Shown here piece after piece: positions 24,667 through 58,249 of a DNA stretch of 64,000 nucleotides. Source of the stretch: an uncultured Candidatus Saccharibacteria bacterium (GTDB taxonomy: Bacteria; Patescibacteriota; Saccharimonadia; Saccharimonadales; Saccharimonadaceae). The DNA lies in the NCBI GenBank assembly GCA_963543945.1, contig CAUUCN010000001.1:1118-65117 (forward strand), read 5' to 3'. The position numbers were made by a program, and so were the translations under genes. The notes beneath the pieces are model-generated. The model was not told where the DNA came from and did no database searches. It saw nothing but the letters and a program-made list of their open reading frames with translations. Each line of letters opens with the position of its first letter. Within the stretch, counting starts at the first letter, position 1.

Positions 24667-25269
24667 TTAAGTTGAAGTTTCGACTGCGGTTTCCGAGAAT
24701 GGCACCGAATCTTTGAGTTTAGTATTTCTCTCTTTGAAGTAATGTTTTACAAATGGAATCAGATGATCCTTCATAAGCTTGAAGTGTAATTCGTGATCAG
24801 CTTCCGTATATTGCGTAAAGTTCATCCGAAATAGCCGGTCAGCATCTTCATATTCCTCCTGAGTAAGAAATTTCTGCTCTAAGGCTAATTTAAAACCATA
24901 TGAACTAAAATATTCTCTACTGATAGATACTTTTTGGTCAAGATTATAGTCGCGTCTAAAATGTATGAGACGACTAAGCAAAGCGGCTTGGTGTTTGAAA
25001 TCCTTATTGCCGAGCTTAGTTAATCCAGTCAGACTAAAGGGGCCGAGCAGGATTTTGGTATGAAGATTGCGAATCGTGCAGCCAGTATGACTGCGGACGC
25101 GTTTACTAAAACTAATCAAATCCTTGTCTGGGTGATACTCCATCTTGATGACCTCCCATTCCTGGATGGCTTCATCGTAAGTATCAGCAACAGATGAAGC
25201 AATGAGACAGCGCTGATATTCCGCAAAAGCCTCATCAAACGGCATCTTCTTAATACGATGGATAAACAT
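24667..25269 (-). CDS. Hypothetical protein (second gene of the A1 operon)
   Basis: 200-aa ORF, 3 nt downstream of 25273..26160; no family recognised. Confidence 0.6.
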   Translation of the reverse strand: MFIHRIKKMPFDEAFAEYQRCLIASSVADTYDEAIQEWEVIKMEYHPDKDLISFSKRVRSHTGCTIRNLHTKILLGPFSLTGLTKLGNKDFKHQAALLSRLIHFRRDYNLDQKVSISREYFSSYGFKLALEQKFLTQEEYEDADRLFRMNFTQYTEADHELHFKLMKDHLIPFVKHYFKERNTKLKDSVPFSETAVETST

Positions 25270-25272
25270 TAA

Positions 25273-26160
25273 TTACATCACCTCCTTCATCGGACTTTTG
25301 TAATACTGGTGAACGAAATCAGACAGGTTTTTGAATTCGTAAGTCTTAGATGCTGATTCAAAGGCGGGCGTTAACTCTATAAAATTGGTAATCATGTAGA
25401 GTTGCTCGTCAAAATCAGGTGTTCGAAATACTTCTTTTGGTAGTACCTGTATAATAGAATCAAGTGGTGGCAGTTGATAATGCTCATCTTCTCGCATAGC
25501 GCGCAAAGCTTTATTGATCATCTCGTGTACTTCACTTGATCGAATTTCGAGTGCCCGGGCAATTTGATTAATTTTCCAGGGTTCATGAATGTCGATACCA
25601 AAAAATAGATCAAGACAATTGAAAAAATCTTCTGGGAAGCGTTTTAAAACTTCCATGACGCGATTGACTTCACGGTCAGAAAGTACGACAAAGTTTTCGT
25701 AAGCTTGATTACTACTGAACAAGGCATCTTTACTGCAGATTAGCTGGCTGGCTTCTGATAGATCATGATAAACCATCTGATAGAGCTTATGCACCGCAAA
25801 GGTGTCTTGAGTATTGGCTGGAGTGAGGCCTTTACGAATGTATCCCTCATCTAGCAAGACCTGCCAGAAACTGCGACGCCATTTAGCATGTTTTTTGCTA
25901 GGAGAAAGTTCATTATAAAAAACCTCTCTAGCCTGTAAAACTAAGACTTCACCAGGTATTTTGGCTTCTTCGTGTGCACGAATTACGTGGCTTAAAAGAC
26001 AATTTTCGTAACTCACGGTGGTGATGCCATATTCGCAGCCGGGTTGATCACGAGACTGACATTCGTCAGCCCAGTGAATGGTGTAGCGGCCAAGCTCTGG
26101 TAAAAGCTCGGCTAGATTACTCTGATTTACTTGCTTACAAACTTGTTCACTAATTAGCAT
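25273..26160 (-). CDS. Family A1: protein with sigma70 region-4-like HTH
   Basis: VLSDREVNRVMEVL...LFFGIDIHEPWKINQIARALEIRSSEVHEMINKALRAMRE resembles sigma70 region 4; EGYIRKG block shared with A3 and A4. Confidence 0.65.
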   Translation of the reverse strand: MLISEQVCKQVNQSNLAELLPELGRYTIHWADECQSRDQPGCEYGITTVSYENCLLSHVIRAHEEAKIPGEVLVLQAREVFYNELSPSKKHAKWRRSFWQVLLDEGYIRKGLTPANTQDTFAVHKLYQMVYHDLSEASQLICSKDALFSSNQAYENFVVLSDREVNRVMEVLKRFPEDFFNCLDLFFGIDIHEPWKINQIARALEIRSSEVHEMINKALRAMREDEHYQLPPLDSIIQVLPKEVFRTPDFDEQLYMITNFIELTPAFESASKTYEFKNLSDFVHQYYKSPMKEVM

Positions 26161-26255
26161 AAAAAATCCCCCTCTTTTTTAAGTTTTCAGTTACCCACAA
26201 ATTGTCAAAAAACGATTTAATTCAGAGAAATCAAAAAATGAACTAAATCTATATA

Positions 26256-26284
26256 ATTCTACCATAAAAAGTATAAAATGTCAA
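26256..26284 (-). promoter_or_regulatory. Sigma70-type promoter TTGACA-17-TAGAAT (TGg extended) for the A1 operon
   Basis: Minus-strand read: TTGACAttttatactttttatggTAGAAT. Confidence 0.65.
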
Positions 26285-26329
26285 AAAAGGTATGGACAAA
26301 TAATATGAGTTATGTTATTATAATGCCAG

Positions 26330-26764
26330 CGCTAGACGAGCTCTTTTATAAACAGGAATGGGAACTTAACCAAGGTTAAGGACGCCTCGCAAGCTGAATT
26401 AACCCAAATACTTATTTTAGCGTCAAGTCACACACTTTGGAGAAGAAGTACATACACTTCGACCTGAAAGACAGATCGAAACGCTAGTAGGCGGAAGCCT
26501 GTGTGAACTCACAGATTTTCGTTGAGAGATTAAGTAGATCTGCTCTAGATGGCACGTCGTTGGTCGAGTGTTTTGAGCTACGTAGCGCAAAAAATAACCG
26601 TATAATAGTTTTTGCCTAAAAAGTAACCCGTTCCCATTCCCTGTTTGCTCTACACCTTACCGTACAGGTAGTACGGAGCCCACCGCTCGCTTAGTAGCGG
26701 AACGTAACTTACCTTCTTGATCACTTCTATGGTCAAGGCTCCCGGCATTGTCGGGAGTTTTTTA
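26330..26764 (+). ncRNA. Candidate novel structured RNA (~435 nt), class unknown
   Basis: Sits in a 700-nt stretch with no ORF of 60 aa or more. TATAAT at 26319-26324 and terminator CTCCCG..CGGGAG plus T7 at 26739-26764. Long-range complements 26350-26365/26630-26646 and 26329-26343/26575-26588, plus at least six local hairpins including a GGAA tetraloop. Confidence 0.55.
26739..26764 (+). terminator. Intrinsic terminator ending the candidate RNA
   Basis: CTCCCG-gcattgt-CGGGAG followed by TTTTTTT. Confidence 0.75.
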
Positions 26765-26891
26765 TTGGCGAGAAATAACGCTTGAGGATGTAAAAATAAC
26801 AGGGGTGTGATAGAATGAGGCTAGAAAGTTAGCTTTGGTTAAAGTACATTGAAAATTAGTGCTTAGATTTATCTCATTGGGGGGTGAAAAA

Positions 26892-27734
26892 ATGAAAGAT
26901 AATGATAAAAATAAGAGAAAAGAATTAGCGGCGAAACAGAAGTTTCATGAAGATATGGTGCTGGGATCGAAATTTATCCAGAACTGGTATTTGTTCCCGA
27001 CAGTGCCAGCGGATGGGGTGGAGTATGCGTATGACGAATTTTTAAGGAGCGTTGCCTTATTTTTACATAGAAGGACCATGGCTTTAGAAATTCAGGATTT
27101 AGGAATTTCCCTATTTGGCGCATCGCGTTACCCATGTTTTGATAATATCTTAGAGCTTGGGCAGCCGGGTTTTTACGGAGTGATTGATAATGTGGCGCGA
27201 ATCGAGAAGCTCACTATAGAAGAGAACAAAGCTTTTGTTGGTAAAATGCGGAAACAGCATCCTATCTATAAAGTAAAAAAATCGGAGCTGGTCTATAAAA
27301 TCGCGGCAGCTAGCGGTGAATTTTATGTAGGTTTGAGCGCCGTAAATCCATCATTTGCTCTGTTATTGAATAAAAAAATTGAGCAAAATAAGAAAGCCAA
27401 CTCAGTCTTAGATAACCTAAATTTAAATCGCATGATACTGGAACGAGAAATCTTTTCAGCGATGAACTTCATGGATCACTATGGTGATATGCGGGGATAT
27501 TATGATGGGGGTGAGGATGATTTTTTCGAGGACGACGAGGATCTCGAGAGGCCCGATGGTGAAGTGAAAGATAAACCAGATAATTTGGGCAGATCTAATA
27601 TTGACGGTCAGAAGCCGACGACATTGGAGATGGATGACTCGAAAAAGAAAGATATCAATCCAGATGGCTCTAAGAAAAATGATAAGCCAAAAGGCAAACC
27701 TAAGGATGGTAAAAAGCGAAAAAAGAAACCATAA
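26892..27734 (+). CDS. Family C1 hypothetical protein with acidic then Lys-rich C-terminal tail
   Basis: Start at ATG 26892 (GGGGGTGA Shine-Dalgarno); IEKL...SELVYKIAAASGEFYVGLSAVNPSF aligns with 27864..28391. Confidence 0.65.
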   Translation: MKDNDKNKRKELAAKQKFHEDMVLGSKFIQNWYLFPTVPADGVEYAYDEFLRSVALFLHRRTMALEIQDLGISLFGASRYPCFDNILELGQPGFYGVIDNVARIEKLTIEENKAFVGKMRKQHPIYKVKKSELVYKIAAASGEFYVGLSAVNPSFALLLNKKIEQNKKANSVLDNLNLNRMILEREIFSAMNFMDHYGDMRGYYDGGEDDFFEDDEDLERPDGEVKDKPDNLGRSNIDGQKPTTLEMDDSKKKDINPDGSKKNDKPKGKPKDGKKRKKKP

Positions 27735-27863
27735 TCTAAGCATTAATGAGAATCCCAGCTTCAACGGCTGGGATTTTTTCATTAAATGTGGTATAATATA
27801 AAGGTTAAGTTTTAAAGTACATTTAGTTTTAGTCGATGACACACGACAGAAAGGTGGGGATAT

Positions 27864-28391
27864 ATGTCGAAAAGACGCGAACGTGAGAAGGCTCAAGAAC
27901 TTCGTGCTGCAGCAAATTTGCGAATTCGCCGGGATTATTCCCTGGTGAGTCGGTGGAGTTTTGAATTTATGGAACCTCATACGGCGATAGATCAGTTTGC
28001 CTTGCTTAAGATGTTCAATGCATTTTACTACGGACATCTGCCGAAATTCGATTTTGAGGAAGAAATTCGCTTGCGCGGAATAAAATCCGATGATGTAAGA
28101 ATTCGCTTGCGTGGAATAGATTCCGATGATGCAAGGAGGCCGAGTGAAATCTTAAATATTCAGTCGATTGAGAAGCTTGATTTGCCGCTTATGAGCAAAG
28201 AGGAGCTGCTGAATATTTTCCGACCGGAAAACTGGAAGGAGATGCAAGAAACTATCGGTGATAGTGAGATTTATCTGGTAACCTCGAAAATGGATAAGTA
28301 TTATCTGATTTCGACGGACGCCAAGCCGATTTTTAAAGATCGGCTGGACCAAATTCATCAAGGCGCCACACTCGCCACATTGGACGAGTAA
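27864..28391 (+). CDS. Family C2 hypothetical protein
   Basis: AGGTGGGGA Shine-Dalgarno; IEKL...SEIYLVTSKMDKYYLISTDAKPIF aligns with C1; contains an in-frame 36-nt duplication. Confidence 0.65.
   Translation: MSKRREREKAQELRAAANLRIRRDYSLVSRWSFEFMEPHTAIDQFALLKMFNAFYYGHLPKFDFEEEIRLRGIKSDDVRIRLRGIDSDDARRPSEILNIQSIEKLDLPLMSKEELLNIFRPENWKEMQETIGDSEIYLVTSKMDKYYLISTDAKPIFKDRLDQIHQGATLATLDE
28065..28136. repeat. In-frame 36-nt tandem duplication (IRLRGI.SDD. x2)
   Basis: attcgcttgcgcggaataaaatccgatgatgtaaga / attcgcttgcgtggaatagattccgatgatgcaagg. Confidence 0.9.
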
Positions 28392-28567: not shown

Positions 28568-28597
28568 TAAAAAGCCCCTAGATAGGGGCTAGATTTT
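28568..28597. terminator. Bidirectional hairpin terminator
   Basis: AGCCCCTA/TAGGGGCT perfect arms flanked by an A-run and a T-run; overlaps the A2 stop codon. Confidence 0.6.
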
Positions 28598-29257
28598 CGT
28601 TAGATAAGGTTGGATTTTTTTGAGCGCGGACTTGAGGTGGCGATCAGTCTGAGTGAGAAGTAAACCTTCATTGACTGCGGTTTCACGCAAATTATGAATG
28701 TTATCACCTTGCAAGCCGAAGCTAAAATTGACGACGCGATACTCACGTTTGGTCAACTCACGCTGTAAAACCCGCTGAATGTTTTCGAGGTGCTTGAGTT
28801 CTTTCTGACTTCTCTCGAGATCAATACAAATATCTTCCTCATAGAGCTGATTCCAGTCGTGGACGGTGAGAATTTTGGCGCGATCGGTGAGTTGATAATT
28901 ATGAGCCTTTCTGGTGATTCTGGGGTCACGATATTCCAAAATTAAAGGTTCATAGTCGTCGCCGTAAACCGTACGATAGAGATAATACATGCCGATGATT
29001 CTGGAATCGATGTTTCGACAAATTAAGTGATTGTATTCAAAAATTTCCATACAGATCTTGAGCGAATGCGGAATGTTCCGAATGACTCCGGGATGATATT
29101 GCTCCATGTAATAGAGGTAGCGGCAATCCCAGATCAAATGCTCTACGGTTTCATAATTGCGTTCGACATAATTTTTAACATTACCATCAACTAGATGATA
29201 ATAGCCGAGCTGGCTTAAACTGTCGACTTTCCAAGCTTTACTAACTTCATTTTTCAT
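28589..29257 (-). CDS. Family A2: HhH (alpha-CTD-like) plus sigma70 region-4-like protein
   Basis: N-terminal LSQLGYYHLVDGNVKNYVERNYETVEHLIW; C-terminal REYRVVNFSFGLQGDNIHNLRETAVNEGLLLTQTDRHLKSALKKIQ; GGAGGGG Shine-Dalgarno. Confidence 0.7.
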   Translation of the reverse strand: MKNEVSKAWKVDSLSQLGYYHLVDGNVKNYVERNYETVEHLIWDCRYLYYMEQYHPGVIRNIPHSLKICMEIFEYNHLICRNIDSRIIGMYYLYRTVYGDDYEPLILEYRDPRITRKAHNYQLTDRAKILTVHDWNQLYEEDICIDLERSQKELKHLENIQRVLQRELTKREYRVVNFSFGLQGDNIHNLRETAVNEGLLLTQTDRHLKSALKKIQPYLTKI

Positions 29258-33069: not shown

Positions 33070-33522
33070 TTAATGTGGGATATAGAAATCGGCATAACCG
33101 AGGTCATGCATGGCCTGGATGATTTCCTGAATGGAAACTTTGCCGAGATTACGAATCCTACCCCAATCGATTGAGTCAAGCGATAAAACATCTTGAATGG
33201 TATTGATATTACGATTTCTTAGGCAGTGATAAGGCCTAGGCTTGAGATTCAAGATATCGATACTGGCGTGGCCGGGATCGTTCTTAATCAGGTACTTAGA
33301 AGCCATAGTGGCTGGCTCGCTGGTGCCTTGACTAAGTTTTTGAAGCTCGATTAAGATATGATCACGCGTCTTAATCTCCTCTGTCTGCTGAAGCTTTTTC
33401 AGGGCTAGTTTAAGTGCAGCTTCTTGACGACAGGCGGCGGAAGCGGAGATCGCTTGATGTGCCTCGACGAGGTCACGAAATTTCATCAAATCTGTTCCAT
33501 GGTTAGTAATGTGTTCGGTCAT
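33070..33522 (-). CDS. Family A5: stand-alone RNA polymerase alpha-CTD-like protein
   Basis: Start ATG 33522 (AGGAGGGG Shine-Dalgarno); IDILNLKPRPYHCLRNRNINTIQDVLSL...IRNLGKVSIQEIIQAMHDLGY matches the alpha-CTD double-HhH pattern. Confidence 0.7.
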   Translation of the reverse strand: MTEHITNHGTDLMKFRDLVEAHQAISASAACRQEAALKLALKKLQQTEEIKTRDHILIELQKLSQGTSEPATMASKYLIKNDPGHASIDILNLKPRPYHCLRNRNINTIQDVLSLDSIDWGRIRNLGKVSIQEIIQAMHDLGYADFYIPH

Positions 33523-33577
33523 AGTTCCCCTCCTATGTGTGAAATGTGCAATGTGTATAAAATAATACAATAATTAT

Positions 33578-56170: not shown

Positions 56171-56270
56171 TCATCCGTGGAGCCGCGTGTGCAAAAGCAC
56201 ACTTGCACCACTTCTTCAAATTCTTTGAAAAGTAAACTTTTCACGAATTTTCATCCGTGGAGCCGCGTGT
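56168..56270. repeat. 23-nt direct repeat of the tRNA-Thr(UGU) 3' end plus trailer (56168-56190 and 56248-56270)
   Basis: tttcatccgtggagccgcgtgt occurs twice, 80 nt apart. The distal copy is preceded by a GTGTGC-tttt-GCACAC hairpin on the minus strand. Confidence 0.85.
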
Positions 56271-56333
56271 CGGCTCTGCCCCGACGACCTGCCGCTTACA
56301 AGGCGGCTGCTCTACTAGCTGAGCTAACGCGGC
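56258..56333 (-). tRNA. trnT: tRNA-Thr (anticodon TGT) with non-canonical D-loop and T-loop
   Basis: Hand fold: acceptor GCCGCGT/ACGCGGC, anticodon loop CTTGTAA, encoded CCA. The T-loop is GGCAGAG (not TTCRANY) and the D-loop AGCTAGTA lacks the GG pair. Confidence 0.7.
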
Positions 56334-58131: not shown

Positions 58132-58249
58132 TAGTTTAGAAAAAAGCAAAACCCGCTAGAAGTGTTAACTTAGTTTAGGAAAAAGTAAAACTCGCTAGAA
58201 GTGTTAACTTAGTTTAGAAAAAGTAAAACCCGCTAAGGGTGCGGGTTTT
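58132..58249. repeat. Three tandem 39-nt units derived from a terminator
   Basis: tagtttag(g)aaaaag.aaaac.cgctagaagtgttaact x3. Only the last unit keeps a full hairpin (AAAACCCGC-taagggt-GCGGGTTTT), which terminates the rluD-like gene. Confidence 0.85.

Follow-up and report, generated by a model that had tools for sequence, protein, structure and literature searches.

Large, intricately folded bacterial RNAs are, to our knowledge, rare, and nearly all that have been characterized are either ribozymes or the cores of important ribonucleoproteins. The large orphan RNAs OLE, GOLLD, ROOL and HEARO and the raiA motif span several hundred nucleotides (nt), contain many conserved helices and possess their own promoters and terminators, and the RNA described here resembles them in each of these respects. 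It lies at positions 26328-26764 on the + strand of a 64,000-nt stretch of DNA (the window) from an uncultured Candidatus Saccharibacteria bacterium, and had been proposed from the sequence as a candidate for a new structured RNA, ~435 nt long, whose transcription diverges from that of an operon designated A1. Homologues, conserved helices, strand asymmetry and negative Rfam searches support that proposal. We conclude that this is very probably a genuine structured noncoding RNA (ncRNA) gene, predicted to be independently transcribed, that founds a new family and is confined to one clade of oral Saccharibacteria. What is new is an RNA family without detectable relatives, not a demonstrated new mechanism.

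The genomes of Saccharibacteria and of other candidate-phyla bacteria are tiny and consist largely of genes whose function is unknown, and we are aware of almost nothing that is known about their ncRNAs. An RNA of ~437 nt that is more constrained than most neighboring proteins, in organisms that are sparing with DNA, implies a function worth the cost. The finding is of interest both for RNA biology and for research on candidate phyla, tempered by the narrow distribution of the RNA and by the shallow phylogeny behind its covariation; with so few lineages, the structure model has limited statistical power, and the role of the RNA, whatever it is, can be of limited generality only. Relatives of the clade can be co-cultured with host Actinobacteria and genetic tools exist for related Saccharibacteria, and thus the RNA is experimentally approachable.

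The RNA gene and its homologues

All sequence elements listed in the original prediction were found where it had placed them. A promoter scan identified a predicted + strand promoter at 26293-26321, with a -35 element TGGACA (26293-26298), a 17-nt spacer and an extended -10 element TG-n-TATTAT (26313-26321), and this promoter is invariant in syntenic homologues. The -10 element had originally been assigned to the TATAAT box at 26319-26324. This box is present and overlaps the site found by the scan, but TATTAT at 26316-26321 fits better as the -10 element: the most divergent homologue (locus L013) retains TG-n-TATTAT and has lost TATAAT, and the rest of its upstream sequence differs. We therefore place the -10 element at 26316-26321, with a predicted transcription start near A26328. 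As proposed, the promoter stands back to back with that of the divergent operon, for which the scan gives TTGACA-17-TAGAAT with a TG and 11/12 matches (26284-26256, - strand). This operon consists of a 295-amino-acid (aa) open reading frame (ORF), a 200-aa ORF and a Y-family DNA polymerase with Pfam IMS domains.

At the other end of the gene, the intrinsic terminator predicted at 26739-26764 folds as described (CTCCCGG-CATTG-TCGGGAG, a 7-bp G+C-rich stem with a 5-nt loop, followed by a run of T6, or U6 in the RNA). It is present in 46 of 46 homologues and shows double changes at two pairs (C-G to G-C and U-A to C-G, nine sequences each); a simple terminator scanner did not list it. The RNA gene is thus predicted to be driven by a sigma-70-type promoter and the RNA to be ended by an intrinsic terminator. 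The predicted primary transcript bounded by these elements spans 26328-26764 (~437 nt), is full-length in 46 distinct sequences and has a G+C content of 45%, compared with 41% for the window.

Most genomes carry a co-oriented gene for a 280-aa protein 3′ of the RNA. This gene has its own conserved promoter past the terminator (TGTGATAGAAT, 26806-26816), as had been anticipated; promoter and leader occupy 26806-26891 on the + strand, outside the RNA, and the ATG begins at 26892. In locus L013, the RNA is flanked by the polymerase gene, which is divergent, on one side and by a convergent gene for an ADP-ribosylglycohydrolase on the other; an additional terminator-like hairpin, read from the sequence, lies between them. 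Both in L013 and in a second locus, L015, the usual flanking ORFs are gone except for the polymerase, and no co-oriented gene follows the RNA. Because a separate promoter follows the terminator and these two loci lack a co-oriented gene, we consider the RNA to be an independent gene.

The first syntenic homologues were obtained from contigs of relatives of the 295-aa divergent neighbor, for which only close relatives were found (at least 75% identity, nearly all metagenomic). An exact 20-mer from the most conserved block occurs in 22 species-representative genomes, all of them Candidatus Saccharibacteria or Nanosynbacter-type assemblies, and a second, gapped pattern from a different block revealed 28 further true homologues in metagenome contigs. 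Besides same-clade homologues, the pattern scans returned two chance matches inside coding sequence. Removal of duplicates left 46 distinct homologues, all from one tight clade of human-oral Saccharibacteria (TM7); the window itself is of the oral taxon 351 type, and in one of the 22 genomes, a single-cell genome of TM7 oral taxon 351, the RNA region has a score identical to that of the window. The gapped pattern had 0 matches in viral contigs, blastn searches of phage and plasmid collections with the region gave no match, and no second copy of the RNA is present in the window, where the gene is single-copy. A literature search that included a sequence-string search of full texts found no mention of such an RNA or of its sequence.

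Polymerase homologues fall into two groups, with 92-93% identity in the clade that carries the RNA followed by a sharp drop to 61% or less. In three sister lineages (polymerase identity 55-61%), only 125 nt (~280 nt in one) separate the polymerase gene from a neighboring gene before it, too little to accommodate the RNA, and an nhmmer search with all filters off found no RNA homologue within 8 kb on either side of the sister-genus polymerase loci. Judged by these syntenic loci, the RNA appears to be absent, or unrecognizable, outside one genus-level clade.

We compared the RNA with all 4227 models of Rfam 15. At gathering thresholds no family was found at the RNA when the whole window was searched, and at E ≤ 10 nothing relevant was found in 26100-26900 or in the L013 homologue. 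The only matches were sub-threshold and ascribed to chance. They include terminator-driven small RNA (sRNA) matches in L013 and a weak SAM-III (SMK box) match outside the RNA, in the leader of the 295-aa gene (26158-26241, - strand; 17.6 bits against a threshold of 45, E 0.56), which is most likely fortuitous. The original prediction had discerned none of RNase P RNA, tmRNA, 6S RNA or signal recognition particle (SRP) RNA, a view that holds in Rfam 15 down to E ≤ 10 and with ARAGORN, a program that also detects permuted tmRNAs and reported no tmRNA or tRNA in the region. The further models that it had singled out, namely GOLLD, ROOL, OLE, HEARO and raiA, did not match either.

Individual classes were rejected on the following grounds. 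There is no covariance-model match to RNase P RNA, including its conserved P4 core, at gathering thresholds on the window or at E ≤ 10 on the region and on L013. Neither a tRNA-like domain nor a tag reading frame, as expected for tmRNA, was found by ARAGORN or Rfam. 6S RNA is a rod of ~180 nt with a central bubble, whereas this RNA is branched and ~437 nt long, and no 6S match was obtained at E ≤ 10. SRP RNA is represented by small and large bacterial models, neither of which matched. OLE, GOLLD, ROOL, HEARO, raiA and the other Rfam 15 families likewise gave no covariance-model match. Group I and group II introns yielded no core-model match, and the RNA resides between genes with its own promoter and terminator. 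As for sponges of the CsrB/RsmZ type, the + strand of the RNA holds no more than two ANGGA sites, and GGA is not enriched.

Sequence conservation points to constraint on an RNA rather than on a protein. In the 5′ domain (26328-26588), homologues match the window at 82-99.6% of positions, whereas polymerase third codon positions in the same genomes are 65-77% identical. Thus, the 5′ domain is under strong purifying selection. The 3′ tail ranges from 46 to 100% identity and exists in at least four versions, whose assortment among strains follows neither the core nor the neighboring genes. Within the conserved domain the homologues show indels of 1 nt and 4 nt, and variable columns are distributed among codon phases as 34/33/37, with no 3-base periodicity. 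The region is therefore not coding, and a small ORF is further ruled out by reading TGA as a sense codon: no ORF that results across the ORF-free stretch exceeds 79 codons. This stretch (26161-26858) is, as originally noted, the longest truly ORF-free one in the window; both of its strands are free of ORFs that reach 60 aa. The interval 1358-2295 is nominally longer but is occupied by a long ORF on the minus strand, which continues past the window start and which the ORF tool did not list. This ORF (1-2140, - strand) has at least 345 codons and a signal-peptide-like start, and is open at the left window end.

Secondary structure model

We derived a model of 13 helices on the 46-sequence alignment from RNAalifold and from a de novo scan for conserved stems, which placed P4, the terminator and P1 among its top-ranked stems. 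Canonical pairs make up 97.7% of 4192 base-pair cells, compared with 36-42% in slid controls in which partners were moved by 1-3 columns. Changes on both sides affect 14 pairs (104 cells), as opposed to 1-8 pairs (1-25 cells) in the slid controls, and the observed values were reached by none of 500 shuffles. P4 is supported best, and covariation is also seen in P5a, in the terminator, in the second of the tail hairpins and in a single pair of P1. Substitutions among homologues thus preserve the proposed helices, and helices kept by compensatory substitution are the mark of a stand-alone structured ncRNA.

When the same pairs are read on the opposite strand, the canonical fraction falls from 97.7% to 87.7%; 10.6% of the cells are G-U. 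This asymmetry agrees with the promoter and the terminator, and the RNA is therefore assigned to the + strand. Folding energy is only modestly better than that of shuffled sequences on both strands (z = -2.96 for the + strand and -2.70 for the minus strand), such that energy alone does not indicate the strand.

The conserved core comprises ~300 nt (26328-26646), in which P1 closes around at least five further helices (P2-P6) and which contains two invariant internal-loop strands. P1 is a long helix formed by 26350-26365 and 26630-26646 with C26639 bulged. The long-range complementarity had been recognized previously and is borne out as an 11-nt perfect core within 16 pairs, 99.6% of which are formed across homologues; one G-C to A-U compensatory pair and wobble changes are observed, and an 11-bp perfect helix arose in only 3 of 200 shuffles. 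Immediately inside P1 is the P2 hairpin (26366-26379, UUAAC-CAAG-GUUAA), which is 98.7% paired with wobble-compatible changes. It had been proposed as CTTAACC/GGTTAAG at 26365-26380. The hairpin is real, yet its extent is smaller, with only the five pairs between 26366-26370 and 26375-26379 forming, because C26365 is taken by P1. P3 (26393-26421) has 6 + 3 bp with an internal bulge and is 95% paired, with one pair changed on both sides from U-A to G-U.

A single-stranded, purine-rich joiner (GGAGAAGAAGUACAUACA, 26439-26456), whose 3′ portion holds the motif AAGUACAUACA (26446-26456), leads into P4. This helix pairs 26454-26464 (ACACU-U-CGACC) with 26562-26571 (GGUCG-AGUGU) and is the best supported of the model, as 4 of its 10 pairs are changed on both sides and 98.5% of cells are paired. 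The 5′ strands of P5 are contained in 26470-26477, where GAUC (26474-26477) pairs with 26537-26540 and GAC (26470-26472) with 26556-26558; one 9-bp helix between 26469-26477 and 26537-26546 is an alternative. The hairpin P5a (26541-26554, UGCU-CUAGAU-GGCA) exists in three stem sequences, all of which pair, and three of its four pairs are changed on both sides.

Between P5 and P6, two strands face each other in an internal loop. The alignments show that the first (GAAACGCUAGUA, 26478-26489) is nearly invariant and that the second (GAGAGAUUAAGUA, 26524-26536) is invariant in all 46 sequences, including the 28 homologues found with a pattern that does not contain GAGAGAUUAAGUA. The arrangement of GAA and AGUA beside helices is, as we read it, suggestive of a loop-E or sarcin-ricin motif. 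P6 (26490-26523) consists of an apical hairpin, CUGUG-UGAACU-CACAG (26499-26514), and a stem of GGCGGAAG and UUUUCGUU (26490-26497 with 26516-26523). It is 99.7% paired over 13 pairs, every change is wobble-compatible, and its many G-U pairs favor the + strand. A hairpin with a GNRA-type loop, AGGC-GGAA-GCCT (26489-26500), had been suggested here. That hairpin overlaps CTGTG/CACAG and is broken in one sequence group, and the extended P6 stem fits the variation better, which makes the suggested hairpin doubtful.

Downstream of P4 lies a variable, A/U-rich insert (26589-26629) that is 41 nt long here and 71-83 nt in most homologues. The 27 distinct inserts, which fall into several versions, have weak folds, and most of them contain AAGUACAUACA. 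Beyond P1, the modular 3′ tail (26660-26737) comprises three hairpins (26660-26676, 26683-26700 and 26716-26737) and has a mosaic distribution between strains. Each of its versions folds into hairpins, and the third hairpin has been replaced wholesale. These three and the apical hairpin of P6 are present as initially drawn and are conserved as hairpins. We take the exchangeable tail to serve mainly in 3′-end stability and termination.

The 5′ end may be tied into the core by a pseudoknot. The candidate arms, 26329-26343 (GCGCU...AGCUC) and 26575-26588 (GAGCU-ACGU-AGCGC), could pair by sequence complementarity, and the second could instead form a local palindromic hairpin. As the original prediction stated, this complementarity is present and crosses P1. 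The arms are 98-99.6% paired, and RNAalifold favors two local hairpins. Because neither arm varies to any extent and both are palindromes in themselves, the pseudoknot is indistinguishable from two local hairpins, although we find it plausible.

Possible roles of the RNA

A short motif of the core recurs close to the gene. The 11-mer AAGUACAUACA is found in 42 of the 46 RNAs in the joiner before P4, in the variable insert or in both; the same fraction carries GUACAUAC at these places and AAGUACAUAC at either of the two positions, which are non-homologous. Where one motif site is mutated, the other usually carries AAGUACAUACA. The sequence AAGTACAT occurs five times in 64 kb versus 1.75 expected, a number reached by 2 of 100 shuffles, and three of the five occurrences belong to this RNA and to the two genes that follow, in whose leaders they lie ~20 nt from the 5′ end. 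In the leader of the 280-aa gene, a P2-like hairpin (26829-26842) is directly followed by AAGUACAU (26842-26849). Its stem is the P2 stem UUAAC/GUUAA, with pairing kept through substitutions. This leader is almost invariant; its protein is 43-95% identical between strains. GGUUAA together with AAGUACAU is also present in the leader of the gene after the 280-aa gene.

The leaders of the 280-aa and 175-aa genes (26823-26891 and 27804-27863) share GGUUAA followed by AAGUACAUU, and both are almost invariant. Their common sequence looks like an element for shared post-transcriptional control. UACAU is the cleavage site of the MazF toxins of Bacillus and Staphylococcus, to which these leaders might conceivably be linked.

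Because the hairpin and AAGUACAU module is common to the RNA and the neighboring mRNA leader, we tentatively suggest, with low confidence, that the core acts in trans as a protein-binding scaffold or decoy rather than as an antisense RNA. The core would display the UUAAC/GUUAA hairpin and the AAGUACAU(ACA) motif, and the RNA would likewise be bound by a factor that recognizes the two leaders, and could titrate or assemble that factor. The most likely role of the RNA is that of a trans-acting protein-binding RNA, with RNA-only and polymerase-directed roles as the main alternatives. Taken as a whole, a new-family RNA gene combined with such a scaffold or decoy function is the best explanation of the data, and one that in our judgment stands about as good a chance of being right as of being wrong.

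Several points weigh against this interpretation. The homologues come from one shallow clade, such that the compensatory changes represent few independent events, and the shuffle control overstates significance for related sequences. The two pairings of P5 are mutually exclusive and show compensatory changes in both, and the candidate pseudoknot arms lack variation, which makes covariation uninformative there. That the RNA is expressed is something we infer from its promoter and terminator and from how selection has acted on it. A short motif is the basis of the decoy idea; four homologues lack the exact 8-mer, and in L013 and L015, which have the RNA, the two motif-bearing genes are not in the vicinity. 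We identified no RNA-binding protein: comparison of the flanking proteins with Pfam, NCBIfam, PHROGs and PADLOC gave nothing significant except for the Y-family DNA polymerase two genes away, and the other neighbors are orphans. An AlphaFold model of the 175-aa neighbor, based on a 10-sequence alignment, had a predicted local distance difference test score of 51 and was unusable.

A bolder possibility, which we hold to be somewhat less probable than the scaffold or decoy role, is that the RNA represents a new class of large ornate RNAs specific to ultrasmall epibiotic Saccharibacteria, whose pseudoknotted core would be the RNA subunit of a new ribonucleoprotein or an RNA-only machine. Its gene would then be part of an island that diversifies rapidly and abounds in orphan proteins of sigma-like and alpha-CTD-like character. 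If this were true, such an RNA could, for example, reprogram transcription or RNA fate in the episymbiotic lifestyle.

It is also possible, but unlikely, that the RNA acts alone in the manner of OLE, ROOL or GOLLD, either as a self-assembling architecture or as a ribozyme of which the core is the active or assembling part. Its size, multiple helices, invariant internal loops and possible pseudoknot would suit such a role, as would its location in a lineage-specific, fast-changing island, a setting in which ROOL and GOLLD are often found. Short palindromes (AGCGCU, GAGCUC and GCUACGUAGC) could mediate self-association, although they are equally explained by local hairpins or the pseudoknot, and the RNA shows no similarity to the OLE, ROOL and GOLLD families.

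We consider it distinctly unlikely that the RNA is a regulator directed at RNA polymerase, like 6S RNA or Ms1, that binds the polymerase or a sigma-like protein of the island. Residues 181-225 of the 295-aa protein weakly resemble sigma-70 region 4, with RpoD region 4 as the top three PDB matches (E 0.27-0.5), another island protein has weak SigK region-4 matches, and the island includes an ORF resembling the C-terminal domain of the RNA polymerase alpha subunit. The P4-P5-P6 rod with its large invariant internal loop might likewise be in keeping with such an activity. However, these protein similarities are below significance, L013 and L015 retain the RNA without the 295-aa gene, and the RNA is branched, twice the size of 6S RNA and unmatched by the 6S models even at E ≤ 10.

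To about the same low degree, the RNA might be a base-pairing antisense regulator with targets elsewhere in the genome. It forms a transcription unit of its own, and the purine-rich joiner and the A/U-rich insert provide long single-stranded stretches. Nonetheless, shuffled controls pair with the leaders of the three adjacent transcription units at least as well as the RNA does in its best duplexes, the window contains no reverse complement of the recurring motif, and in both size and degree of structure the RNA goes far beyond typical base-pairing sRNAs.

There is little likelihood that the RNA is a cis-acting leader or riboswitch that controls the 280-aa gene through the terminator. In most genomes it is upstream of this gene, in the same orientation and ending in a terminator, as a leader would be. 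This reading is contradicted by the separate conserved promoter after the terminator and by L013 and L015, in which no co-oriented gene follows. Moreover, the tail versions are uncorrelated with the versions of the 280-aa protein, and no antiterminator alternative is evident.

Even less credible is a highly divergent universal RNA (RNase P RNA, tmRNA, SRP RNA or 6S RNA) that covariance models missed. The length is appropriate for RNase P RNA or tmRNA, long-range helices may cross, and candidate-phyla bacteria are divergent, but nothing matches at E ≤ 10, and neither a tag nor a tRNA-like domain was found. An RNA that is universal should not end at a genus boundary, yet two independent conserved blocks were found only in this clade, and the sister syntenic sites of 125 nt (~280 nt once) are without an nhmmer match within 8 kb on either side. 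Just as improbable is a DNA-level element (an origin or a site of recombination or transfer) or a remnant of a decayed gene. Although the island is recombining and targeted by insertion sequences, ~10% of the paired cells are G-U, a combination that is mismatched in DNA and when the other strand is read, helix changes are compensatory, promoter and terminator stand exactly at the ends, and codon periodicity is lacking.

The surrounding island and comparison with known RNAs

The RNA gene is situated in a lineage-specific island of ~10 kb that consists of orphan genes. In several relatives, an insertion sequence with an rve-type transposase has inserted between the two divergent promoters (L005, 2801-3769; L010, 1898-2860). 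Four other contigs (L001-L003 and L007) break at the same point, where their match ends at window position ~26289. This suggests a hotspot at ~26285-26290 at which insertions recur or have been inherited; they part the RNA gene from the divergent operon and leave both intact.

The proteins of the island vary unevenly between strains. Comparison of 24667-26160 and 26892-27734 across loci gives 43-95% identity for the 280-aa protein and 78-99% for the 295-aa protein; the 200-aa protein exists in two classes, at ~71-73% and 91-100% identity. The polymerase is 91-96% identical, and the 175-aa and 222-aa proteins are mostly 87-99% identical. This uneven evolution of flanking genes forms a mosaic, as expected from recombination or diversifying selection. 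The 295-aa protein (25273-26160, - strand) exhibits weak similarity to sigma-70 region 4 in a PDB sequence search (E 0.27, below significance), and the 222-aa protein (28589-29257, - strand) has weak SigK region-4 matches and a nearby paralogue with 28-29% identity. An ORF at 33070-33570 (- strand) has a Pfam annotation for the RNA polymerase alpha C-terminal domain in the equivalent locus L008. The 175-aa protein (27864-28391) begins with the arginine-rich stretch MSKRREREKAQELRAAANLRIRR, as read from the sequence, and includes a tandem 12-residue duplication (IRLRGIKSDDVR / IRLRGIDSDDAR) that most homologues do not have.

Elsewhere in the window, an intergenic tandem array at 58132-58235 comprises 2.7 copies of a 39-nt unit (TAGTTTAGGAAAAAGTAAAACCCGCTAGAAGTGTTAACT) with 92% matches. 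A fourth tRNA was detected with Rfam at 56261-56333 on the - strand (52.7 bits) and was not reported by ARAGORN.

In comparison with described RNAs, the new RNA is similar in length to RNase P RNA and tmRNA and shares with them long-range helices that may cross and a conserved core. It differs in the absence of an RNase P core, a tRNA-like domain and a tag, and in its absence from the sister-genus syntenic site. The proposed protein-binding role would correspond to those of 6S RNA and RNAs of the CsrB/RsmZ type in that a stable RNA displays a motif of leaders or promoters and binds the same factor. Unlike CsrB/RsmZ, however, the RNA lacks repeated GGA-loop sites and has its motif only once or twice, and Rfam 15 provides no match of the 6S or CsrB type. 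The large orphan RNAs OLE, GOLLD, ROOL, HEARO and the raiA motif are also comparable in their narrow taxonomic ranges, their occurrence in variable genome regions and functions that are not deducible from neighboring genes. They nonetheless have no sequence or structure similarity to this RNA in Rfam 15. Whereas those orphan RNAs belong to Firmicutes or phages, the RNA reported here has no viral matches and is found in a single genus-level clade of Saccharibacteria.

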